The position numbers were made by a program, and so were the translations under genes. This document shows positions 4,909 to 17,690 of a stretch of 21,012 nucleotides of DNA, piece after piece. Location: positions 1-21,012 of the forward strand of contig CAJLBR010000017.1 in NCBI GenBank assembly GCA_905204915.1, written 5' to 3'. The stretch comes from an uncultured Clostridium sp. Its GTDB lineage: Bacteria; Bacillota; Clostridia; TANB77; CAG-465. Position 1 is the stretch's first letter. Each line of letters starts with the position of its first letter. A model generated the notes under the pieces. That model was not told the DNA's origin, did no database searches, and saw only the letters and a list, made by a program, of their open reading frames with translations.

Positions 4909-6300
4909 ATGAAAGATGATAAAGAAAAAGTAGAAAATGTTGACAAGAAAAAAGATGATAAAAAAGTACAAAATACAACAAAAAAATCATCTAACAATGC
5001 AAAATCTAATAACAACCAAAAGAAAAAAAATAATAATCAATCAACTAAAAAAGAAAACAAAAAAGTTGAAGAAGTAAAAAAAGAAGAAGTTAAGGAAGTT
5101 AAAGCTAAAAAAGATGTAGTTAAAGAAAATAAAGAAAGCCAAGAAGTTAAAGAAATTAAAAAAGCAGAAGCAGAAGCTAAAAAACTTGCTAAAGAACAAG
5201 AGAAAAAAATGAATAAAGCTTTTGTTGGTACTGATAAAATAGCAATATTTTCAGTAATTGCTGTAGTTTTATTAATAGCATTCGGTTTATTCTTCTATCT
5301 TTATTATTCACAAAATATGGTTGCTGTAGTAACATTCGATGGTGGTAAAGTAACTCGTGCAGAATACGAAGTTTATTATAAAACATTTGAACCATTCTTA
5401 ACAACTTACTATGGATATCCAGAAGACCAAGTTGGTGAACAAATAGCTCAAAAAGCTGCACTTGATAAAATTATTGTAAAAGATGCAACAGCTGCTGGTG
5501 TAACACTTACAGATGAAAATAAAACTGCAATAGATGAAGTGTTTAACGATGAAGATAGAATAAAATCTTTCCAACAACAAGGAATCGATATCGATATAAT
5601 GAGACAATTATATGAAAGTGATTATATAATTACAAATTATATGGAAAAAATGGCAGAAGACTTAACTGATGATGAAGTAAAAGCATACATCACAGAAACT
5701 TATGGTGATTCTGCAGATTTATATGAATACAATACAAGTCATATATTATTCAAAACAATAGATGATTCTTCTTCTGAAATTAGTGATGAAGAAAAAGCTG
5801 CTAAAAAAGCTAAAGCAGAAGAAATTTTAAGTAGAGCATTAGCTGGTGAAGATTTTGCTACACTTGCTAAAGAAAACTCTGAAGATTCTACTGCAAGTGA
5901 TGGTGGAGTATTTGTAATGTACATGGATGGAAATACAGTTACAGAATATTCTGATGCAGTTGCAAAATTAAACGAAGGTGAAGTTTGTGCAACTCTAGTA
6001 GAGTCTGATTATGGTTACCATATTATAAAATTAAACAAAAAAGTAGAAAATGGAAGATTACAAAATAGCAATGAAAGAGAAGCTTGTGTATCTGAAAAAA
6101 TAAATAAATTATCAGAAGAAAGAAATATTAATGTAAATACTGATATAATGAACAAAATAATTGAAAAATTAAAGAGTGAATCAACAAGCACTACTACTGA
6201 TAATTCATCTGATTCAACAGAAGATACTACAACTACAACAACAGATGATACAACTACTACAGATGACACAACTGTAACTGAAGAAACAACAGCAGAATAA
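4909..6300 (+). CDS. Membrane-anchored parvulin-type peptidyl-prolyl isomerase (PrsA/SurA-like), with a Lys-rich N-terminal extension and a Thr/Asp-rich C-terminal tail
   Basis: PpiC-type signatures: SHILFKT...AEEIL..A..GEDFATLAKENSEDS...GG and YGYHIIKL. There is a single TM helix (IAIFSVIAVVLLIAFGLFFYLYY). The position immediately downstream of mfd is typical for Clostridia. RBS AAAGGAG lies 7 nt upstream of the ATG. Confidence 0.82.
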   Translation: MKDDKEKVENVDKKKDDKKVQNTTKKSSNNAKSNNNQKKKNNNQSTKKENKKVEEVKKEEVKEVKAKKDVVKENKESQEVKEIKKAEAEAKKLAKEQEKKMNKAFVGTDKIAIFSVIAVVLLIAFGLFFYLYYSQNMVAVVTFDGGKVTRAEYEVYYKTFEPFLTTYYGYPEDQVGEQIAQKAALDKIIVKDATAAGVTLTDENKTAIDEVFNDEDRIKSFQQQGIDIDIMRQLYESDYIITNYMEKMAEDLTDDEVKAYITETYGDSADLYEYNTSHILFKTIDDSSSEISDEEKAAKKAKAEEILSRALAGEDFATLAKENSEDSTASDGGVFVMYMDGNTVTEYSDAVAKLNEGEVCATLVESDYGYHIIKLNKKVENGRLQNSNEREACVSEKINKLSEERNINVNTDIMNKIIEKLKSESTSTTTDNSSDSTEDTTTTTTDDTTTTDDTTVTEETTAE

Positions 6301-6317
6301 AATTTAAGGGGAATACT

Positions 6318-7172
6318 ATGGAACAAACTTTAATAATAAATAGTAAATCTAATGAAAAAGTTAAATTTGTTAAATCTTTAAATGATAAAAAATTTAGAGT
6401 AAAAAATGAAGCTTTTTATTTAGAGGGAATAAAAGTTGTTTACGAGGTATTAAGTAAAGAAAAAGCGATAGACGTTATGTTTATCGCTTATTCTGATGAA
6501 ATACTAAATAAAACAAAACAGGGTATAGAAGCTTTAAAAAAATTAAATAATAAAAAGTATAATGATATAAAAAAATATAATTTTTCTGAGGCTGCTTTCG
6601 ATTTTATGTGTGATACAGTAACTCCACAAGGAATTTTAGTGGTTTTAAAAACAAAGAAAGTAACATTAGAAAATTTAATTGAAGATGCTACAAATAAAAA
6701 TCAAAATCTTTTAATTGTAGATAAAGTTCAAGATGCTGGGAATTTAGGGACAATAATAAGAACTGCAAATGCATTTGATATAAATAACATAATTTGTATA
6801 GACGGAACAGTAGATGTATATTCACAAAAAGTTTTAAGATCTACTATGGGAACAGTATTGACCACAAATATTGTATATGTATCAGATAATATGATTCAAG
6901 AATTAAAGAAAGAGTTAAATCAAAACAAATTTGTTATAACAGTTACATCACTTGAAGCTAAAAAATATCTAGAAGATTTAGAGTATGGCAATAATAAATA
7001 TGCTTTTGTTTTAGGAAATGAAGCAAATGGTGTAAGTGAAAAAATGATAAATGTAGCTGATGAACAAATTAAAATTAGAATGAATAATAATGTAGAGTCT
7101 TTGAATGTATCAATTGCCTCTGGAATTTTATTATATGATCAGTATAAAAATAAACCAAAAATAAAAATGTAA
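6318..7172 (+). CDS. TrmH/SpoU-family RNA 2'-O-methyltransferase
   Basis: SPOUT motifs: LLIVDKVQDAGNLGTIIRTANAF, AFVLGNEANGVS and ESLNVSIASGILLYD. An N-terminal substrate-binding-like domain is present. Confidence 0.85.
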   Translation: MEQTLIINSKSNEKVKFVKSLNDKKFRVKNEAFYLEGIKVVYEVLSKEKAIDVMFIAYSDEILNKTKQGIEALKKLNNKKYNDIKKYNFSEAAFDFMCDTVTPQGILVVLKTKKVTLENLIEDATNKNQNLLIVDKVQDAGNLGTIIRTANAFDINNIICIDGTVDVYSQKVLRSTMGTVLTTNIVYVSDNMIQELKKELNQNKFVITVTSLEAKKYLEDLEYGNNKYAFVLGNEANGVSEKMINVADEQIKIRMNNNVESLNVSIASGILLYDQYKNKPKIKM

Positions 7173-8803: not shown

Positions 8804-8832
8804 TTGACATAATACATAAATTGTGTTAAAAT
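8804..8832 (+). promoter_or_regulatory. Sigma-A-type promoter of the higher-GC ORFan cassette
   Basis: TTGACA (8804-8809), a 17-nt spacer ending in TGT, then TAAAAT (8827-8832). It shares the 14-mer TGTTAAAATGTTAG with the dtxR-family promoter downstream. Confidence 0.55.
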
Positions 8833-8889
8833 GTTAGCGCACGTGATAGTGTAGAATCCATTATGACTATTAAAGGAGGACATTTTAAC

Positions 8890-9273
8890 ATGAAGAAAGA
8901 AAGCATTAAGTTGTCGATAAGAAAGGCTGCTAAGTCACTCGAACAGTTCGTCGATTTCTGTGACGAAAAGTGTACAGCGGTAAAAGAAAAGCTTTATGAG
9001 ACGAGGTTTTGCGTTGACTACCCAATCGGCACTGAGTTCACAAGTCCAAAGGGAAAAACCTGCAAGATCAAAGAGTACATCTTTAACAGCGATGGCTGCT
9101 TTGTTGTTGTTGAAAAAGGTGACGGCAAGAGATCTAAGCGAATGAGTATGACTGAATTTGAATCCAAGTATACTCTGAAAAACAACCCAGAAGACGATGA
9201 TCCGGCAGCGGCGGAAGCTGACACTATCAATGAAGAATCTGATGATTCTGATGATGACAGCGACGAAAGCTAA
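8890..9273 (+). CDS. ORFan protein, 127 aa, with a polyacidic C-terminal tail and foreign (higher-GC) composition
   Basis: GGAGG (8875-8879) lies 10 nt upstream of ATG 8890, so the track's start at 8863 is probably too early. Hand GC counts are 24/60 (8941-9000) and 29/60 (9001-9060), against 11/60 in the native neighbour (8401-8460). The tail reads PEDDDPAAAEADTINEESDDSDDDSDES. The gene has its own promoter and terminator. Confidence 0.7.
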   Translation: MKKESIKLSIRKAAKSLEQFVDFCDEKCTAVKEKLYETRFCVDYPIGTEFTSPKGKTCKIKEYIFNSDGCFVVVEKGDGKRSKRMSMTEFESKYTLKNNPEDDDPAAAEADTINEESDDSDDDSDES

Positions 9274-9283
9274 TTAAAAAATA

Positions 9284-9322
9284 AATAGGTTCTTAAGAAT
9301 TTTCTTAAGGACCTATTTTTTG
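9284..9322 (+). terminator. Rho-independent terminator of the ORFan cassette
   Basis: A 14-bp stem pairs AATAGGTTCTTAAG (9284-9297) with CTTAAGGACCTATT (9304-9317), with one G-T wobble. It is followed by TTTTT. Confidence 0.75.
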
Positions 9323-9855: not shown

Positions 9856-10569
9856 GTGTTAGAACTAATTAATATATGTTTTGAAAGAGACGGTAAAAAA
9901 ATATTAGATAATGTAAATCTAAAGTTAGAAATGAATAAATTTATAGCAATCACTGGTCCAAATGGTTCAGGTAAGTCTACACTTGCTAAAATAATAATGG
10001 GAATTGAGAAACAAGATTCAGGGATTATATTATATGAAGGAAAAGACATTAGTAATCTTTCAATATGTGAACGTGCTAATTTAGGAATAGGATTTGCTTT
10101 TCAACAACCAGTAAGATTTAAGGGGATTACAGTTTATGACCTTTTAAAAATAGCTGCACATCGTGATATATCTAGATTAGAAGTATGTAAAATATTAGCT
10201 AGTGTTGGTTTATGTTCAAGAGAATATATAGATAGAGAAATAAATTCTTCTTTATCTGGTGGAGAGTTAAAAAGAATAGAAATAGCCTCAGTGGCAATTT
10301 CTAAATCAAAGCTTACAATATTTGACGAACCGGAAGCAGGAATTGATCTTTGGAGTTTTAATAATTTAATTGAAGTATTTGAAAATATGAGAAATATAAT
10401 AAAAGGAACAACTCTTATAATATCTCACCAAGAAAGAATTTTAAATATTGCAGATGAAGTTATATTGTTAGAAGCAGGAAAAATTAAGAAAAAAGGTTCT
10501 AGTAGTGAAATTTTAAATGATATAAAAAATCCTAAAAAGAACTTTAAGCTAAAAAAGGGAGGCGAGTAA
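9856..10569 (+). CDS. sufC: SufC-like Fe-S cluster assembly ABC ATPase
   Basis: Walker A GPNGSGKST, signature LSGGELKR, Walker B LTIFDEPEAGID and an H-loop ISHQ. The GTG start lies 7 nt after GGAGG and abuts the regulator's stop. Confidence 0.85.
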   Translation: MLELINICFERDGKKILDNVNLKLEMNKFIAITGPNGSGKSTLAKIIMGIEKQDSGIILYEGKDISNLSICERANLGIGFAFQQPVRFKGITVYDLLKIAAHRDISRLEVCKILASVGLCSREYIDREINSSLSGGELKRIEIASVAISKSKLTIFDEPEAGIDLWSFNNLIEVFENMRNIIKGTTLIISHQERILNIADEVILLEAGKIKKKGSSSEILNDIKNPKKNFKLKKGGE

Positions 10570-11487
10570 ATGGAAAAGGTTGATGAATCTTTACTAAATA
10601 AAATATCTAATTACGATGACATAAGAAAAGGTGCGTACAATATAAGAAGAAATGGTAAAGGAATAGAAAGAAAAAATAGTGAAAACGTAAGTATAGTTAC
10701 AAAAAAAGAAGTTTCAGGTATTGATATATATGTAAAGGAAAATACTAAATTTGAACTTATTCACATCCCAGTTATAATAACAGAAAGTGGTCTAACAGAT
10801 GTGGTATATAACGATTTTTATATTGGAAAAAATTCTGTTGTGACAATTGTAGCAGGATGTGGTATACACAATGATTATCATGAAGATTCTAGACATGATG
10901 GAATACACAGATTTTTCTTAGAAGAAGGTGCTACAGTAAAATATGTGGAAAAACATTATGGTGAAGGCAAAGGTGATGGAAAAAGGATTTTAAATCCAGT
11001 AACAGAAGTATACTTAAAAGATGGTAGCAGTCTTGAAATGGAAACTATACAAATAAAAGGTGTGGATCACACAATAAGAACTACTAAGGGAGAACTAGAT
11101 AATGATACAAATTTAGTTATAACAGAAAAAATATTAACTCATAATGACCAGTACGCAAAGACTATATTTGATGTATCTTTAAATGGTAAAAATTCTAGTA
11201 CTCATGTAGTTTCTAGATCTGTTGCTACTGATAACTCTAAGCAAGAATTTGTATCTAAAATATATGGTAATAATAAATGCTTTGCTCATAGTGAATGTGA
11301 TGCTATCATAAAAGATAGTGCTAGAGTTAGTGCCACTCCAGAAATTACAGCTGCTGATGTAGAGGCTAATTTAATACATGAAGCTGCTATAGGAAAAATT
11401 GCTGGTGAACAGCTTACAAAGCTTATGACTCTAGGACTTACAGAAAAAGAAGCAGAAGATGCAATTATTTCTGGATTTTTAAAATAA
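10570..11487 (+). CDS. SufB/SufD-family Fe-S assembly scaffold protein (short, 305 aa)
   Basis: Beta-helix-type SufBD core and the conserved C-terminal region (EANLIHEAAIGKI..EQL.KLMTLGLTEKEAEDAIISGF). The ATG directly follows the sufC stop (TAAATG). Confidence 0.82.
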   Translation: MEKVDESLLNKISNYDDIRKGAYNIRRNGKGIERKNSENVSIVTKKEVSGIDIYVKENTKFELIHIPVIITESGLTDVVYNDFYIGKNSVVTIVAGCGIHNDYHEDSRHDGIHRFFLEEGATVKYVEKHYGEGKGDGKRILNPVTEVYLKDGSSLEMETIQIKGVDHTIRTTKGELDNDTNLVITEKILTHNDQYAKTIFDVSLNGKNSSTHVVSRSVATDNSKQEFVSKIYGNNKCFAHSECDAIIKDSARVSATPEITAADVEANLIHEAAIGKIAGEQLTKLMTLGLTEKEAEDAIISGFLK

Positions 11488-11529
11488 AATGGTATATAAT
11501 AATTACAGGTAAGAAAAGAGGTTTTGATT

Positions 11530-12606
11530 ATGGATAGAAAAGTAAAAGTTTTTCAATATGGTACAGGCAAAATGAGCGTATATACAATGAGATATGTGTA
11601 TGAAAATGGCGCTGAAATTGTAGGAGCTGTTGATGTTAATCCAGCTGTAATAGGAAAAGATATAGGAGATATAATTGGCTCTGAAAAGAAAAATATCTTA
11701 GTTCAAGATGTTAAAAATGCAAGAGAAGCATTAAGCGAAGCAAAACCAGATATCGTTATTGTAACAACTATGAGCTTATTTTCAGATGTTTATGATGCAT
11801 TAATGCTTTGTGCTGAGCTAGGAATAAATGCTATTACAACTTGTGAAGAGGCATTTTTCCCTGAAAATTCTAATCCTAATGCTACAGCAAAAATTGATGA
11901 AATGGCTAAAAAGACAGGTTGTACTATTACAGGAAGTGGATATCAAGATATTTATTGGGGACAATTAGTATCTAGTATTGCTGCTTCTTCACATAGCATA
12001 AAGAAAATAAAAGGTTCTTCTAGTTATAATGTTGAAGATTACGGTATAGCTTTAGCCAAAGCTCATGGAGCTGGTTTAAATCTTAAAGACTTTGAAGAAC
12101 AAATAGCATCAGCAGATAAAATTTCTGATGAAGAAAGACAAAGCATAATTGAAAAAGGTGAATATATGCCTTCTTATATGTGGAATGTAAATGGATGGTT
12201 ATGTGAAAAACTAGGACTTACAGTTACATCTCAAACTCAAAAATGTGTTCCACAAATTGCAAGTAAAGATATTAACTCATCAACTTTAAATATGACTATT
12301 AAAGCTGGTGATGCAACAGGAATGAGTGCAGTTGTTACAACAACAACTAAAGAAGGAATTACATTAGAAACAGAATGTATAGGTAAAGTTTATTCAGAAG
12401 ATGAATTTGATAAAAACGAATGGAGTGTTGAGGGAGAACCAAATACTACTCTTGTAATAAATAGACCATCAACTGTAGAACTTACTTGTGCTTCTATAGT
12501 AAATAGAATTCCAGATGTTATTAATGCAAATCCAGGATATGTACCAACAGAGAAAATGGGAGAATTATTCTATAGAGTAAAACCGCTAAATGAATATGTT
12601 AAATAA
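11530..12606 (+). CDS. NAD(P)-binding DapB-N-domain oxidoreductase, 2,4-diaminopentanoate dehydrogenase / native amine dehydrogenase-like
   Basis: An N-terminal Rossmann-like segment (KVKVFQYGTGKMS...GAEIVGAVDVNP...GKDIGDI) is followed by PDIVIVTT and INAITTCEE, then GCTITGSGYQD, matching the architecture of that family. ATG 11530 lies 8 nt after AGAGG, so the TTG at 11524 is less likely. The functional call is tentative. Confidence 0.55.
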   Translation: MDRKVKVFQYGTGKMSVYTMRYVYENGAEIVGAVDVNPAVIGKDIGDIIGSEKKNILVQDVKNAREALSEAKPDIVIVTTMSLFSDVYDALMLCAELGINAITTCEEAFFPENSNPNATAKIDEMAKKTGCTITGSGYQDIYWGQLVSSIAASSHSIKKIKGSSSYNVEDYGIALAKAHGAGLNLKDFEEQIASADKISDEERQSIIEKGEYMPSYMWNVNGWLCEKLGLTVTSQTQKCVPQIASKDINSSTLNMTIKAGDATGMSAVVTTTTKEGITLETECIGKVYSEDEFDKNEWSVEGEPNTTLVINRPSTVELTCASIVNRIPDVINANPGYVPTEKMGELFYRVKPLNEYVK

Positions 12607-12725: not shown

Positions 12726-13667
12726 ATGGAAGAAAATTATGTTGTTACGTCTTACATTAATCCAGATTTAGATGGAATTTCATGTATGTATGCATACAAA
12801 GAATTTATAGAAAAGTGTGGTAGAAAATCTAATTATTATATAAGTGGAGTACCCAAAAAAGAGGTAAGTATAGTATGTGATATGTTTGGAATATCACTAA
12901 ATCCAATAGAAAAGATTGGAAAACATGACAATATAATTTTAGTTGATACCAATTCTGATTTATATATAGAAGATTCAATAATTAAAGAAAATGTAACAGA
13001 AATTATTGATCATCATGTAAAATCTGAAAGTTCAAAAAAATTTGTAAATGCTAATCTTACAATTGAACTTATTGGAGCAGCAGCAACATTGGTGGGAGAG
13101 AGATTTATGGAATATTCTCTTGATATATCTAATAGTTCGGCAATACTTTTATATTATGGAATTGTTTCTAATACAATAAATTTTAAGAGTAAAAATACAA
13201 CTAAAAAAGATAAAGAAGTTGCAAAGTGGCTTAAATCAAAATGCTCAAAAATAGATGATTCAAAAATAGAAGAGATATTTAGAAAAAAATCAATTATTGA
13301 AAAAGGATCAATGAAAAATGAAATTGAAGCATCAAATCCAGTTCCAATAAATGGTAGCAAAAATGTAATTATTGGTCAGCTTGAGATAGTAGAAATTGAT
13401 AAGTTTTTAGATGAAAATGAAGATATAATTAAACAGATTCTTGAAGAGGAAAATAAGAGTAAAAATCCTGACTTTATTTTTTGTAATATTATAGATATAC
13501 TTAATGGAAAAAGTACCCTATATTCATCAGATGAAAGTACAAAGCAAGCATTAAATAATGAATTTAATTACTTATTTGAAGATAACATATGTAATTTGAA
13601 CAGTTTAATAACAAGAAAAGAACTATTTAAGAAACTAAAAAATCATTATAATATTAGGAGGGGATAA
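12726..13667 (+). CDS. DHH-family phosphoesterase (PpaC/NrnA-like fold)
   Basis: DHH motifs are present: NPDLDGISC (motif I), LVDTNS (motif II/III) and IIDHH (motif III/DHH). ATG 12726 follows AAAGGAGA. The 32-codon upstream extension in the track (12630) reads through the terminator/promoter region and is rejected. Confidence 0.8.
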   Translation: MEENYVVTSYINPDLDGISCMYAYKEFIEKCGRKSNYYISGVPKKEVSIVCDMFGISLNPIEKIGKHDNIILVDTNSDLYIEDSIIKENVTEIIDHHVKSESSKKFVNANLTIELIGAAATLVGERFMEYSLDISNSSAILLYYGIVSNTINFKSKNTTKKDKEVAKWLKSKCSKIDDSKIEEIFRKKSIIEKGSMKNEIEASNPVPINGSKNVIIGQLEIVEIDKFLDENEDIIKQILEEENKSKNPDFIFCNIIDILNGKSTLYSSDESTKQALNNEFNYLFEDNICNLNSLITRKELFKKLKNHYNIRRG

Positions 13668-13669
13668 GT

Positions 13670-14377
13670 ATGCCAGCTTGGGGAATGCATTTAAAAACTG
13701 CCAAAAAATTAAATGAATATTTAAAACTTAATGAATACAAGTTTTATTTTGGAAATGTTATGGTAGATGCAGAAAGACATGTAGTGCATGATTTATCTGT
13801 TGTAGTTTCGTATGATGATTCCCATTATGCTAAATTGCAAAATGTAAATGGAATCATGATAAAGCTACCAGATTATGAAAGATTCATAGAAGAAAATTAT
13901 CAGAACTTAAGTAATCCAGTTGTTCTAGGATATCTTACACATTTAATGACAGACTTTTATTATAATAGATTAACTTTCGGTCAAAAGTTTTTATCAGATG
14001 GTATGGGAAAATCTATAGGAATAAAGCTTAATAATGGAACCGATAAAATATGTGATAAGGAAACAATAAGAATATTAAAACAAACAGATTTTGATACTTA
14101 TTCAAGAGAATTGTATTCAAAAGAAGATGTTTTAATAGATGAAAATAAGAAAGATGATATTCTAAAAGCATGTAAAGATATAAAAAATATTAAATATAAT
14201 GGAGAAGATGTATTAAAGATAATTAATTTCGTAAATAATATAAAAAATAATTATGATAAAAGAAAAGATGAAAAAATATGTTATAAGGTATTTACCAAAG
14301 AAGAATTTGATTATAACTTTAACAAATGTGTTGAATTTATATTAGATAATTTAAAAAGTCATAAAATAATAGAATAA
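13670..14377 (+). CDS. Hypothetical protein, possibly a zinc-dependent phospholipase C-like metal hydrolase
   Basis: The N-terminal PAWGMHL...GNVMVDAERH...SHY...GYLTHLMTDFYYN pattern of His/Asp ligands resembles the Zn_dep_PLPC family. The start is tightly coupled to the DHH gene (AGGAGGGGATAAGTATG). The functional call is weak. Confidence 0.5.
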   Translation: MPAWGMHLKTAKKLNEYLKLNEYKFYFGNVMVDAERHVVHDLSVVVSYDDSHYAKLQNVNGIMIKLPDYERFIEENYQNLSNPVVLGYLTHLMTDFYYNRLTFGQKFLSDGMGKSIGIKLNNGTDKICDKETIRILKQTDFDTYSRELYSKEDVLIDENKKDDILKACKDIKNIKYNGEDVLKIINFVNNIKNNYDKRKDEKICYKVFTKEEFDYNFNKCVEFILDNLKSHKIIE

Positions 14378-14396
14378 TATAGTTTTTATTTATAAT

Positions 14397-14430
14397 ATAA
14401 AAAAAGCCTACATGAAAAAACATGTAGGCT
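14397..14430 (-). terminator. Rho-independent terminator of paralog A (minus-strand orientation)
   Basis: The stem pairs AGCCTACATG (14405-14414) with CATGTAGGCT (14421-14430) around an A6 loop. The A-run on the plus strand at 14399-14405 becomes the T-tail on the minus strand. The 24-nt core is identical to that at 14949-14972. Confidence 0.8.
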
Positions 14431-14442
14431 CTACTTTAAAGA

Positions 14443-14814
14443 TTAATACCTGTCATCATAAGGCCATTCCTGACCGTTTGCTTCAGCTTCTTCTTGGCTG
14501 CCATATTGATAATCTTCAGGTGGAATCAAACCATCGATCTCATCAAGTACATTATCCATACAAACTGGATTACATTTTGCAGCCCTTGTTATTTGAGTAG
14601 TGCTTAAATTTGCAGCATTGTTTCCCTTCGTAGATAAAAACTCAAAGTTTTTAATGACTGCCTCCTTGTCAAAATTCCGGCTGTGAGCAAGTTTGTTATA
14701 GGCTACTTCAAAATGAGTGCCAAGCGATTCTGGAATTTTTTCAGGTGCAGAATCACCAGATAACAAGCCAGAGAGCTTAGACTCACTCGGGTTTAAAGGA
14801 AATTCAGTATACAT
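14443..14814 (-). CDS. ORFan acidic protein, 123 aa (paralog A), with a C-terminal CxxxC...IPxE..QY..QE.AEANGQ module
   Basis: GGGAGG RBS lies 10 nt upstream of the ATG (14814). Hand GC count is 28/60 for 14461-14520. It is colinear with the 15011-15382 product: KLAHSRNFDKEAV aligns with DLAHQKDYDEEAI, and CNPVCMDNVLDEIDGLIPPEDYQYGSQEEAEANGQ aligns with CHDDCTDITYDTINGYIPDENCQYDNQEDAEANGQ. Confidence 0.75.
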   Translation of the reverse strand: MYTEFPLNPSESKLSGLLSGDSAPEKIPESLGTHFEVAYNKLAHSRNFDKEAVIKNFEFLSTKGNNAANLSTTQITRAAKCNPVCMDNVLDEIDGLIPPEDYQYGSQEEAEANGQEWPYDDRY

Positions 14815-14873
14815 GTAAAAATTACCTCCCTAAATAAATTATTATTTAAAATTTTCGAATTGCTTCTAGAAAA

Positions 14874-14902
14874 ATTGTAACACTTTTTCTGGAAAATGTC
14901 AA
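14874..14902 (-). promoter_or_regulatory. Sigma-A-type promoter of paralog A
   Basis: On the minus strand: TTGACA (14902-14897), a 17-nt spacer, then TACAAT (14879-14874). The flanking blocks TAACACTTTTT and AATGTCAACTATT (plus-strand reading) are shared with the paralog B promoter. Confidence 0.6.
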
Positions 14903-14940
14903 CTATTGTTCTAAATATACTACAAAATAGTGAAAAATAT

Positions 14941-14972
14941 AAAAAAGAGCCTACATGAAAAAACATGTAGGC
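14941..14972 (-). terminator. Rho-independent terminator of paralog B (minus-strand orientation)
   Basis: The stem pairs GCCTACATG (14949-14957) with CATGTAGGC (14964-14972) around an A6 loop. The plus-strand A6 at 14941-14946 gives the minus-strand T-tail. Confidence 0.8.
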
Positions 14973-15010
14973 GTTGTTTAAAAGTATTAATAACTTTGAT
15001 ATAAATGAAA

Positions 15011-15382
15011 TTAACAAAATTTTTGGCCGTTTGCTTCAGCATCCTCCTGATTATCGTATTGACAGTTCTCATCTGGAATATAACCATTAATTGTATCATA
15101 CGTAATGTCTGTGCAGTCATCATGGCACTGGAGCATTCTCTTGATCTCATCAGAATTTAAATCTGCAAGCATATCTATTTGCATGCTATCCAGCTTTCTG
15201 GCTATGGCCTCCTCATCATAATCTTTTTGGTGAGCAAGATCATCAATTGCCTCCTTAATAGCTTCACAAGTTTCTTCTGAAATGCTGTCAGATAAGCCTT
15301 CAAGTGAGATGGCAAGGGCAGAAGTGCTGTCTGTTACTGCAAGAAGTGTTCCGGCATTTTCTTTTTTAATAATTTCTAACAT
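15011..15382 (-). CDS. ORFan strongly acidic protein, 123 aa (paralog B), with the same C-terminal module
   Basis: GGAGGG RBS lies upstream of ATG 15382. Hand GC count is 27/60 for 15181-15240. It has the same length as paralog A and shares a 14-nt identity, CCGTTTGCTTCAGC (15027-15040 and 14473-14486), encoding AEANG. Confidence 0.75.
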   Translation of the reverse strand: MLEIIKKENAGTLLAVTDSTSALAISLEGLSDSISEETCEAIKEAIDDLAHQKDYDEEAIARKLDSMQIDMLADLNSDEIKRMLQCHDDCTDITYDTINGYIPDENCQYDNQEDAEANGQKFC

Positions 15383-15434
15383 AGTAAACCCTCCAAAAAA
15401 ATAATTATTTTTTTATAATTTCTTACACAGTGGT

Positions 15435-15463
15435 ATTTTAACACTTTTTAAGTTCAATGTCAA
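15435..15463 (-). promoter_or_regulatory. Sigma-A-type promoter of paralog B
   Basis: On the minus strand: TTGACA (15463-15458), a 17-nt spacer, then TAAAAT (15440-15435). Confidence 0.6.
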
Positions 15464-15481
15464 CTATTATTTTAGTAAATG

Positions 15482-15510
15482 TTGACATAAGATTTAAAAA
15501 ATGATATAAT
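15482..15510 (+). promoter_or_regulatory. Sigma-A-type promoter of the 343-aa ORFan, back to back with the paralog B promoter
   Basis: TTGACA (15482-15487), a 17-nt spacer, then TATAAT (15505-15510). The two opposed -35 boxes form a 7-bp inverted repeat, TGTCAAC (15458-15464) and GTTGACA (15481-15487). Confidence 0.6.
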
Positions 15511-15561
15511 TTGGTGAAATTATAAATACTTTTATTGTGAGTACAAGAAAGGATGAATTTT

Positions 15562-16593
15562 ATGAGTAACATTGTAAAACGTGAGGAAATACTGGATTCT
15601 TTGATAATTTCCGAGTATACAAAATTGGAAGATCTTCTCAAAAAATCTGTTGAAAATGGATTTATTGATGATGTGGGTGCAAAAAATATTGCACTAGGAT
15701 TTTTTTCAGTTTGTCTTGAAAATGTAAAAGAATATAAAGAAGAAGTTGCATATGTTGACGAAAAAGAAGCAGAGCAGCTGATACAAAATTATTTAAAAAT
15801 AATAAGTGTTTACTTATCTTGCTTTAAAAATTCTGAAGCATTTGAAATGCTAATTACCAAAAGTCCGGCAGAAATTTTTAAGAATGCTATTAAGTATTAT
15901 GAAAAAGCAAATCTTGAAGCATATAATAATCTAGATTATGCACTTTCCATTTTTTTACCAATAAAAAACAGAGAATCAATTTTGCTTATCAGACGGTTTA
16001 TGCTAATGTACAAGTTTTTTGCGGCTAAGCTTACAGAGAGCGATATTGATTCTGTATCAGTAAATTCAGATGTCGTTGTGTATGAAAACATTGATGTAAC
16101 AATAAATGATCTGGTATATTCTGATATTAAAGATATGGCAAGTGCATCAGGATTTGTAAACTATGTAAACGTGGCAAAAAATCTCTTCTATGAGGCAAAT
16201 ATCATTAAAGCTTTTGATACTGAAGATGTAATTAAGCTAATAAATAATACTCCAAGAAAAATTGAAATTGAAAGTGGAATTTTAGTAGATGAGCCAATCT
16301 CTAATATTACATGGACAGTTTTAAATCAGTTTATGGTATCTTCTTATTATCACAAGGTTCCAAGTGAACCACTGATATTAACTGAAGGCGAAGCCAAAGT
16401 TGCAGCTTGGGAGATATTTAAAGACTTGATTGAACCAGATGAGTTTTTTGAAAATTTGGAAAATACCTCAATTTATTTAAGTTACGATGATGAAACAAAA
16501 GAATTTATAAAAAGCTTATTCCATAAATTAAAATATGCAATGGAAAATCTAAGAGAAAGAAAAATAAATAATATGTTAATAATTAACGAATGA
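15562..16593 (+). CDS. ORFan protein, 343 aa, soluble and acidic, with no recognisable motif
   Basis: Long uninterrupted ORF. ATG 15562 lies 8 nt after AAAGGA, and the in-frame ATG at 15553 overlaps that RBS. GC is intermediate (25/60 at 16021-16080, 17/60 at 15901-15960). The gene has its own promoter and terminator. Confidence 0.7.
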   Translation: MSNIVKREEILDSLIISEYTKLEDLLKKSVENGFIDDVGAKNIALGFFSVCLENVKEYKEEVAYVDEKEAEQLIQNYLKIISVYLSCFKNSEAFEMLITKSPAEIFKNAIKYYEKANLEAYNNLDYALSIFLPIKNRESILLIRRFMLMYKFFAAKLTESDIDSVSVNSDVVVYENIDVTINDLVYSDIKDMASASGFVNYVNVAKNLFYEANIIKAFDTEDVIKLINNTPRKIEIESGILVDEPISNITWTVLNQFMVSSYYHKVPSEPLILTEGEAKVAAWEIFKDLIEPDEFFENLENTSIYLSYDDETKEFIKSLFHKLKYAMENLRERKINNMLIINE

Positions 16594-16598
16594 ATAAC

Positions 16599-16630
16599 AA
16601 GTGGCCAAAATTTTTTGGCCACTTTTATAT
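16599..16630 (+). terminator. Rho-independent terminator of the 343-aa ORFan
   Basis: GTGGCC (16601-16606) pairs with GGCCAC (16617-16622), extended by A/T pairs, and is followed by TTTTATATT. Confidence 0.7.
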
Positions 16631-16673
16631 TATTTTCTTTTTGTATATGCTATAATGAACTAGGTGATATATA

Positions 16674-17084
16674 GTGAAATACGAATTTGAAGTAATTGGA
16701 AAGATAAATGGAAAGGCAAGACCTAGATTAAATATGTATACCGGTAAGGTATATACTCCTACAAATACTAAAGATTATGAAAATTTAATAAGAGAATATT
16801 TTAAAATAAAATACCATAGAAATGAAATTTTAAAAGGTAGAATAAAAGTAACTATTGTGGCATATTTTGCAGTTCCGAAAAGCACTAGTAAAAAAGATAG
16901 GGAAAATATGCTATTAGGTAATATAAGCCCAACTAAAAAGCCAGATATAGATAATATAGTAAAAATAGTACTCGATGCATTAAATAAATATGTGTTTGAA
17001 GATGATAATCAAATAACAAAACTTGATGTTGAGAAAGTTTATGCAGAAGAAGAAAAAGTATACGTTGCTATTGAAGAGTATTAG
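16674..17084 (+). CDS. rusA: RusA-family crossover junction endodeoxyribonuclease (Holliday junction resolvase)
   Basis: GKARPR near the N-terminus, the catalytic-region motif KKPDIDNIVKIVLDALNKYVFEDDNQI, and a size of 136 aa. GTG start after AGGTGA. Composition is AT-rich like the host. A possible extended -10 (TGCTATAAT) lies upstream. Confidence 0.85.
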   Translation: MKYEFEVIGKINGKARPRLNMYTGKVYTPTNTKDYENLIREYFKIKYHRNEILKGRIKVTIVAYFAVPKSTSKKDRENMLLGNISPTKKPDIDNIVKIVLDALNKYVFEDDNQITKLDVEKVYAEEEKVYVAIEEY

Positions 17085-17095
17085 ATAATATGAGT

Positions 17096-17124
17096 TTGAC
17101 ATAATTAGCTTTGTATGATATAAT
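17096..17124 (+). promoter_or_regulatory. Sigma-A-type promoter of the 159-aa ORFan
   Basis: TTGACA (17096-17101), a 17-nt spacer, then TATAAT (17119-17124). Confidence 0.6.
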
Positions 17125-17172
17125 CTGTTGGAAAAAATAAGAACACCTAAAATAATTTGGAGGTTAGAAGCT

Positions 17173-17652
17173 ATGATTGAAATTAAAAGAGCAACATTTA
17201 CTGGACTTTCTTATCCGGAATATTCTAAAGAAAAGGGATATTACACAACAGATGTAAAAATTTTTGATAAAGAGTTTAATACTATCTATCATGATGAGGA
17301 CTACTTTATTGGAAATACTCTGAATGAGGCAATTTTGAAATTTGATAAATTGAAAAGAGATTTTTGGCGAGTTGTTGGCAAGCCGAATGAAAGAGTTAAA
17401 AATTATCTTTATATTAATAAATCGGCATGGGTAATGTTGATAGAAGAAAAGCCAGTGGCTTTGGTCCCGGGAGATAAATCTAAAGATTTGTGCTTGAGTC
17501 TTGACAATTTTGAAGTATTTTCAAGCAGAAGTAAATACTTAGAGGCCTTCAGAGATATGAAAAAGAAGGAGATACTTGAAGAACTTGAAAACATTAGGAA
17601 AGCAGAAAAAAAGCTTGTGCAAAGGCTTAACGATTTAAATGAATTAGTATGA
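17173..17652 (+). CDS. ORFan protein, 159 aa, with a C-terminal coiled-coil-like tail
   Basis: GGAGG (17159-17163) lies 9 nt upstream of ATG 17173. The track's TTG start at 17128 sits immediately downstream of the -10 box (17119-17124), in the predicted 5' UTR, and is rejected. Hand GC count is 24/60 at 17441-17500. The C-terminus KKKEILEELENIRKAEKKLVQRLNDLNELV is heptad-like. Confidence 0.7.
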   Translation: MIEIKRATFTGLSYPEYSKEKGYYTTDVKIFDKEFNTIYHDEDYFIGNTLNEAILKFDKLKRDFWRVVGKPNERVKNYLYINKSAWVMLIEEKPVALVPGDKSKDLCLSLDNFEVFSSRSKYLEAFRDMKKKEILEELENIRKAEKKLVQRLNDLNELV

Positions 17653-17662
17653 TTCAACTTAA

Positions 17663-17690
17663 AGCTGTCATAATTTTATGACGGCTTTTT
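17663..17690 (+). terminator. Rho-independent terminator of the 159-aa ORFan
   Basis: AGCTGTCAT (17663-17671) pairs with ATGACGGCT (17678-17686), with one G-T wobble, and is followed by TTTT. Confidence 0.7.

Follow-up and report, generated by a model that had tools for sequence, protein, structure and literature searches.

Phage morons are independent promoter-gene-terminator units of odd composition that sit inside prophages, Ocr and ArdA are DNA-mimic, anti-restriction proteins, and enzymes of the RusA family cleave Holliday junctions as Mg2+-dependent dimers. A further comparator is the protein family DUF6179 (PF19677), for which a literature search returned no papers. All of these bear on a block of about 3.3 kb in contig CAJLBR010000017.1 of an uncultured Clostridium sp. 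(positions 1 to 21,012, the whole stretch analyzed, hereafter the window), where five open reading frames (ORFs) lie between a PLC-like gene that ends at 14377 and a VTC gene. In order, they encode two acidic paralogues of 123 amino acids (A and B), an acidic protein of 343 amino acids (O343), a RusA-type nuclease of 136 amino acids, and an ORFan of 159 amino acids that is specific to the species (O159). A preliminary description, made from the sequence alone, presented the block as one compositionally foreign island and as a candidate system built around RusA. Our comparison with related genomes indicates that the block is probably a patchwork with separate histories, in which a native rusA is accompanied by a divergent pair composed of a small acidic gene and a DUF6179-like gene, and by the later O159.

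The strain sample consists of 13 contigs of the same species, with L014 as the sister species and L015, a rabbit-gut metagenome-assembled genome, as the outgroup. The coordinates and strands of the five ORFs were confirmed, and every one of the 13 strain contigs has the block, with its genes 95 to 100% identical except for a recombinant B in strain L010 (91.5%). The full five-gene set occurs together in 11 of the 13, and strains lose A and O159 independently (L004 is without A, and L010 is without O159). The source is a spore-forming gut Clostridium, as spoIIR and sufCB lie in the window and contigs identical to it recur in many human-gut metagenomes. The flanks of the block (spoIIR, sufCB, DHH, PLC-like, VTC, mgtE) are collinear with L015, in which the backbone runs spoIIR, o144, DHH, PLC-like, rusA, hydrolase, mgtE, exoIII, and in which the PLC-like gene (5285-6004) and rusA (6001-6411) share a 4-nt overlap. 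The L015 locus contains no A/B, O343, O159 or VTC operon. The preliminary description had proposed looking for a relative in which the PLC-like and VTC genes adjoin without the island; in L015 the PLC-like gene overlaps rusA, and both the ORFans and the VTC genes are absent there. In L014 the order is the PLC-like gene (70% identity), a single minus-strand A/B-like gene of 128 amino acids, a 346-amino acid homologue of O343 (45%), RusA (87.5%) and VTC (74%), and the acidic and 346-amino acid genes keep the divergent layout of the window. The insertion of the pair between the PLC-like gene and rusA would predate the split of this species from its sister, and the site itself may be a chromosomal spot that accumulates lineage-specific genes.

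In the window, gene B lies on the minus strand at 15011-15382 (pI 4.05, net charge -21, G+C at third codon positions (GC3) 0.32) and faces the O343 gene, which lies on the plus strand at 15562-16593 (pI 4.66, net charge -21, GC3 0.20). The space between them holds a bidirectional promoter region (15435-15510, both strands), scored by matches to the sigma-A consensus TTGACA-N17-TATAAT with a maximum of 12. The B promoter, which reads from 15463 to 15435 on the minus strand, scores 11/12 and the O343 promoter (15482-15510, plus strand) scores 12/12, both with the TG of an extended -10 element, and 18 bp separate the two -35 hexamers. When this intergenic region was shuffled 5000 times, both strands reached 11/12 or better only once. 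The same arrangement is found at distant loci: in L036, L037 and L039 a small acidic gene (117, 141 and 165 amino acids, respectively; pI 4.5-4.8) is positioned directly upstream of the O343 homologue on the opposite strand. The intergenic spacing of the pair is 179-211 bp in all five loci that are readable for both genes (191-211 bp in L036, L037 and L039), and in each of these five the GC3 of the pair is above that of its neighbours. Upstream DNA is readable in six loci (the window, L014, L035, L036, L037 and L039), and all six have promoters of 11-12/12 with TG on both strands, back to back, with the -35 hexamers 4-28 bp apart. The neighbours of the pair vary, being M16 peptidases and a Spo0E-like gene in L036, smr and dapF in L037, and trxB and udg in L039, and no rusA is present at any locus that carries a distant O343 homologue. 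These loci may be read, from their layout, as deeply diverged versions of the pair, which other low-GC gut Clostridia have at unrelated sites of the chromosome.

The O343 family is represented by two clusters in a search of 5.8 billion proteins, and an exhaustive search of 1.84 billion representatives with a profile of the family gave eight relatives. One of these, P0011, matches PF19677 at 30.8 bits (cut-off 25) and is retrieved by the O343-family profile at E 9.5e-11; its full-length comparison with that profile by hhalign gives a probability of 98.9% and E 1.5e-17 over 309 columns. A second relative, P0013, aligns at 97%, and P0015 reaches 96% in an alignment confined to the N-terminal 120 residues. 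O343 itself and its 45%-identical relative P0002 have no match to PF19677, even at E 10. By these profile comparisons O343 is a remote relative of DUF6179 that lies outside the current Pfam model. It is similar to DUF6179 members in length (about 300-365 amino acids) and, over its full length, in profile to P0011, but a divergent small acidic partner and bidirectional consensus promoters appear in no description of the family that we found. The initial view that four of the five proteins match no family is thus upheld for A, B and O159 and has to be amended for O343. An AlphaFold2 model of O343 from a seq alignment of seven sequences is all-alpha, with a predicted local distance difference test score (pLDDT) of 75.9 and a predicted template modeling score of 0.76; a model from three sequences was unusable (pLDDT 41.5). 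The model has no fold match in the PDB or BFVD, and the PDB profile search for the family gave a single 15-bit chance match. The ratio of nonsynonymous to synonymous substitution rates (dN/dS) of O343 is 0.30.

The partial homologue P0014 (L038, 1540-6064) shares only its N-terminal ~120 residues with the DUF6179-like family, and its gene follows those of a VirD4/TraG-like coupling protein, of ClpP and of a 441-amino acid secreted protein, a mobile-element context. The N-terminal domain of the family may circulate on conjugative elements. An assignment of P0014 to the PDDEXK-like family DUF3799 was rejected, the match being 22.7 bits against a cut-off of 26 and the aligned region being all-helical in the model.

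Gene A, on the minus strand at 14443-14814 (pI 4.44, net charge -11, GC3 0.30), is related to B at 35% identity (E 2e-20), and the two form a tandem unit of ~550 bp in which the promoter (40 nt, 80%) and terminator (43 nt, 86%) are repeated as well. The two acidic 123-amino acid paralogues and the acidic 343-amino acid protein of the preliminary description are accordingly real. Protein A has a conserved C-terminal motif, IPPEDYQY..EEAEANGQEW, and A, B and the L014 protein share the invariant C-terminal motif D.I.G.IP.E..QY...EAEANGQ. Among the 5.8 billion proteins the A/B family is limited to five clusters, all from this species and the sister L014, and a PDB profile search gave no match to either paralogue. 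Within the species the dN/dS of A is 0.33-0.35. Gene B is found in all 13 strains, and A is missing from L004, where it was lost via a crossover inside the repeated terminator hairpin; in L010, the B copy has an A-type C-terminus. The sequences of these strains show that the small acidic gene undergoes copy-number change and gene conversion within the species. In comparison with DNA mimics of the Ocr/ArdA type, B is likewise small and strongly acidic (24% Asp+Glu, pI 4.05), but A and B resemble no solved structure or defense family in sequence, and the partners in other lineages are milder (pI 4.5-4.8).

Taken together, the small acidic protein, tandemly duplicated here, and the all-alpha DUF6179-like protein of ~340 amino acids would constitute a self-contained divergent pair. 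Both proteins are predicted to be cytoplasmic and would be co-produced at a high level in growing cells, and they would most likely act as a stoichiometric binding pair in which the acidic-aromatic C-terminal tail of the small protein docks on the helical DUF6179 scaffold. Because of the fast sequence turnover, the copy-number change, the gene conversion and the persistently atypical codon usage, the role of the pair would be of an accessory or conflict type, for example toward phages or other mobile DNA, and not a housekeeping one. We tentatively entertain the possibility that the pair is an undescribed two-protein conflict or mobile-DNA module of low-GC gut Clostridia, which moves without a recognizable mobility gene, and that cassettes of this self-contained kind form a whole class in the genome. 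The pair does not resemble a type II toxin-antitoxin module, as the two genes are transcribed divergently and have their own terminators, one of them encodes 343 amino acids, and no helix-turn-helix, ribbon-helix-helix or toxin domain is present.

Several considerations weigh against this interpretation. The small partners of L036 and L037 are not similar to the A/B profile (hhalign probability ~1% or less), and the equivalence of the partners is judged by position, size, charge and promoter layout alone. The pairing is seen in four independent lineages (the window with L014, L036, L037 and L039), L035 contributing to the promoter layout only, and the partial homologue in L038 has no small acidic partner. 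The polarity of insertion versus loss relies on one informative outgroup, L015, in which a loss could also have taken place. No defense, anti-defense, toxin or DNA-binding domain was found, native genes such as dtxR-sufCB also have strong promoters, and the raised GC3 could stem from high expression instead of foreign origin.

The rusA gene (16674-17084, plus strand, GTG start, GC3 0.15) is the one member of the block with a recognizable enzyme as its product. Its product matches PF05866 at 118 bits (cut-off 22.8) and E 5e-34 over model positions 3-124 of 124, and it matches PHROG 140 at E 8e-41. The critical residues of E. coli RusA are D70, D72, K76 and D90/D91 (PMC1636454), and a profile alignment to 1Q8R places D91, D93, K97 and D110/D111 of the window protein at these positions, with all of them invariant in 12 of 12 orthologues. 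Judged on its sequence, rusA here encodes an intact predicted RusA-type Holliday-junction resolvase. In a scan of one genome per GTDB species, 20 related uncultured Clostridia, among them Clostridium sp. CAG:780, CAG:1219 and UMGS1476, proved to have orthologues of 50-71% identity, and several of these orthologues adjoin sufCB, as in the window. The closest phage RusA proteins are 44-46% identical, and 197 phage records match RusA. Between the window and L014 the protein is 87.5% identical with a dN/dS of 0.09 (0.30 for O343), while the flanking native genes of L014 are 62-87% identical to those of the window. In none of the 20 related genomes (L015-L034) is there an acidic or DUF6179-like gene at ~6 kb or less from rusA. 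We conclude that rusA is a vertically inherited, native chromosomal gene and not part of the acquired cassettes, because it has the GC3 of the host, a low dN/dS, chromosomal orthologues, an overlap with the PLC-like gene in L015, only distant phage copies and intact catalytic residues; its host-like composition had already been recognized. Relative to the E. coli DLP12 RusA (PDB 1Q8R/2H8C), the window protein belongs to the same family model and has the critical residues aligned, but the E. coli gene is a quiescent gene of a defective prophage, whereas rusA here is chromosomal, conserved and host-like in its codon usage, is found in ~20 related species, was ancestrally in an operon with the PLC-like gene and shares at most 46% identity with phage copies.

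The gene would formerly have been co-transcribed with the PLC-like gene upstream and then split from that operon partner by the inserted DNA, and its present promoter is probably a weak one of the extended -10 type; RusA would work independently of the acidic/O343 pair. In L015 the PLC-like gene and rusA (5285-6411) come after a short DHH-family gene. The DHH-family protein has 313 amino acids and a DHHA2 domain in the window (12726-13667) and 177-187 amino acids in L014 (578-1141) and L015 (4730-5263), and the Pfam match of the PLC-like protein is weak (17.7 bits, below cut-off). The DHH phosphoesterase, the PLC/P1-nuclease-like protein and RusA may represent an ancestral nucleic-acid-processing operon.

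The last gene of the block, O159 (17173-17652, plus strand, pI 7.7, GC3 0.28), is missing from L014, L015 and strain L010. It is represented by two clusters only, both of them close copies of 89-99% identity, its dN/dS is 0.27-0.29, and its PDB profile search was empty. It would be a later, species-specific ORFan cassette. In L010, the positions of O159 and of the VTC/DUF4956/Cthe_2159 operon are taken by four minus-strand ORF fragments of 58, 158, 104 and 132 amino acids (10497-11900), which have a weak HTH_32 match and resemble a decayed transposase; with this replacement, the VTC operon would therefore also be accessory.

The statement that every gene of the block except rusA has its own promoter and terminator held up, with four promoters of 11-12/12 and four hairpins. 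Besides the bidirectional region, these are the A promoter (TTGACA-N17-TACAAT, 14874-14902, minus strand, 11/12 with a TG extended -10) and the O159 promoter (17096-17124, plus strand, 12/12 with TG). The terminators are located at 14403-14432 for A (minus strand, -19.3 kcal/mol, z -8.1), with the hairpin repeated at 14949-14972 as that of B (minus strand, -15.2 kcal/mol, z -8.3), at 16599-16624 for O343 (plus strand, -17.0 kcal/mol, z -5.6) and at 17661-17688 for O159 (plus strand, -14.8 kcal/mol, z -5.6). For all four, none of 200 shuffles folds equally well. The 3' side of rusA has no terminator, folding there reaching only -1.4 kcal/mol. The total number of promoter-like sites is not enriched (30 seen against 25.2 +/- 5.6 expected), so that near-perfect sites alone are informative. 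The ORFans are under purifying selection (dN/dS 0.05-0.36) and are therefore real genes. Also borne out was the reported lack of an integrase, transposase, tRNA or flanking repeat: the block has no tRNA, no Rfam family and no integrase or transposase domain in Pfam or PHROGs, and a direct-repeat search at its borders gave only weak, AT-rich matches. An inverted repeat of 21 nt and 81% identity that surrounds the pair (14361-14381 and 16626-16646) was considered and rejected as a border signal, being AT-rich and belonging to a set of 41 comparable chance pairs.

The compositional evidence for a foreign block is more graded than was first proposed. The window has 27.8% G+C, and the block, at 0.300, lies slightly above its flanks (0.272-0.279), with the O343 gene at 0.285. 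Four of the five G+C counts made by hand on 60-nt lines were exact and the remaining one is 26/60, not 24/60, but these counts overstate the contrast, since the lines were selected: 22 of the 350 such lines in the window reach 24 G+C, and 16 of the 22 are outside the block. The GC3 signal of the ORFans is real. Against a mean of 0.134 (standard deviation 0.019) for 16 native genes, A, B and O159 are higher by 7.6-9.7 standard deviations, O343 by 3.5, and RusA, which is host-like, by 1.0. Rare codons account for 8-10% of the codons in A and B and for 4-6% in O343 and O159, compared with 2.2% in native genes. The highest GC3 in the window (0.45) belongs to a gene outside the block, that of a 127-amino acid ORFan, o127 (8890-9273), and across A, B and o127 rare codons amount to 8-14% and include CTG, CGG, GCG, TCG and CTC, which are nearly unused natively.

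The relation between GC3 and promoters was followed in a survey of 26 backbone genes in strains L009 and L010. Of the eight genes whose GC3 is at least 0.20, seven have a promoter of at least 11/12 with TG ~50 nt upstream, and of the remaining 18 only 2 do (Fisher p 4e-4). The seven are o127, A, B, O343, O159, o89 and o210, the eighth, o105, comes after o89, and the two lower-GC3 genes with such a promoter are dtxR and exoIII. None of the ORFans downstream of rusA is found at the matching position in L015. What had been called an island is one dense stretch within a broader set of self-contained ORFan cassettes that are interleaved with housekeeping genes.

Several features of these other cassettes may be recorded here. 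The o127 cassette (8804-9318) has a promoter at 8804-8832 (11/12, TG), the gene at 8890-9273 and a terminator of -19.2 kcal/mol, and it encodes an ORFan of 127 amino acids with a Ser/Asp-rich acidic tail; between strains its synonymous divergence (dS) is 0.36-0.50 with a dN/dS of 0.05-0.12, and dS is ~0.08 in neighbouring genes. Between o127 and dtxR, strains L010 (1300-2583), L011 (1263-2573) and L012 (1244-2575) have an additional ORFan of 427-443 amino acids, not present in the window, with a hydrophobic, pilin-like N-terminus. Downstream lie the o89 and o105 cassette (L009, 14450-15109) and the o210 cassette (L010, 17848-18480), with GC3 values of 0.21-0.33 and promoters of 12/12 and 11/12 with TG, which suggests a genome-wide class. 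For the four ORFan cassettes of the block, the comparison with morons made in the preliminary description is a fair one: they too have a strong promoter and a terminator of their own, an atypical composition and a position between conserved genes, with no mobility gene. They differ from phage morons in that their flanks are chromosomal housekeeping genes and that no phage homologues occur in the collections searched.

How the block arose can be explained in other ways. That all five genes form one acquired island, or a system around RusA with acidic proteins acting as DNA mimics or in anti-defense, is suggested by their contiguity and joint presence in 11 of 13 strain contigs, by the extreme acidity of B (pI 4.05, net charge -21) and by the atypical codon usage of the ORFans. 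This explanation is highly improbable and is largely refuted by synteny: rusA is host-like and vertically inherited and in L015 overlaps the PLC-like gene with no other gene of the block present, O159 is not in the sister species, and strains vary gene by gene. A system built around RusA is further contradicted by the distant DUF6179-like pairs, which are never beside rusA, so that the co-occurrence of homologues with rusA that had been proposed as a check is not seen at those loci, and by the conservation of rusA in relatives without acidic or DUF6179-like genes (none within ~6 kb in L015-L034). A role in anti-defense or DNA mimicry received no positive evidence, as searches of PHROGs, PADLOC, phage, plasmid, IMG/VR and PDB collections were empty for the four ORFans; the best PADLOC match has an E of 0.009 (13 bits), the NCBIfam GapS6a match reaches 16 bits (cut-off 90), and no solved DNA-mimic structure is matched. 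Only a little less improbable is an origin as a decayed prophage recombination module, with rusA as its last recognizable gene and the ORFans as morons or remnants. RusA is a typical phage family (PHROG 140, with 197 matching phage records) and the cassettes have the moron layout and an odd composition, but rusA orthologues of 60-88% identity lie in housekeeping contexts in ~20 species, the phage copies are at most 46% identical, an integrase, att repeats and structural genes are all missing, and the flanking backbone is collinear with L015. Nor do the ORFans have phage matches, be it in PHROGs, phage genomes, IMG/VR or BFVD: tblastn against phage and plasmid collections gave no match for O343, B, O159, o127, P0011 or P0014, and scans of IMG/VR and JGI metagenomes gave no relatives, leaving this proposal with no positive evidence.

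The patchwork reading also has to be weighed against explanations that concern the cassettes themselves. They could be old, native, clade-specific genes whose GC3 was raised by very high expression from consensus promoters, through selection favouring G+C in strongly expressed genes, and not by horizontal origin, an explanation that we regard as unlikely but with substance: a GC3 of at least 0.20 goes with a promoter of at least 11/12 with TG (7/8 against 2/18, p 4e-4), the raised GC3 persists in all pair-bearing lineages despite their old divergence, and all the ORFans are under purifying selection. Yet the additional codons (CTG, CGG, GCG, TCG and CTC) are nearly unused natively, unlike in usual translational selection, the genes are missing at the corresponding sites of L015, and the pair occupies a different locus in each lineage. 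Somewhat less probable again is that the small acidic and DUF6179-like genes are paired by coincidence and function independently, for which one could cite the lack of detectable similarity among the small partners of different lineages, the L038 homologue without a partner and the fact that a pI of 4.4-4.8 is common among the proteins of these genomes. A chance pairing is difficult to reconcile with a divergent layout that is the same in 5/5 loci readable for both genes, with spacing held to 179-211 bp, with promoters of at least 11/12 on both strands in 6/6 loci with readable upstream DNA, with the raised GC3 of both genes in every case, and with the gain or loss of the pair together between L014 and L015.

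With the patchwork reading, the RusA lead is removed, as the gene is an ordinary inherited resolvase gene whose neighbours came separately. For very AT-rich genomes such as this one, GC3 followed the consensus-promoter cassettes and not a single island, and G+C content alone is unfit for drawing island borders. For DUF6179, a conserved pairing with a fast-evolving small acidic protein offers a defined two-gene unit for experiment, in which the proteins have drifted apart to ~20% identity and the bidirectional promoter is still near-perfect. If the proposal is true, self-contained promoter-ORFan-terminator cassettes inserted between housekeeping genes would represent a broader class.

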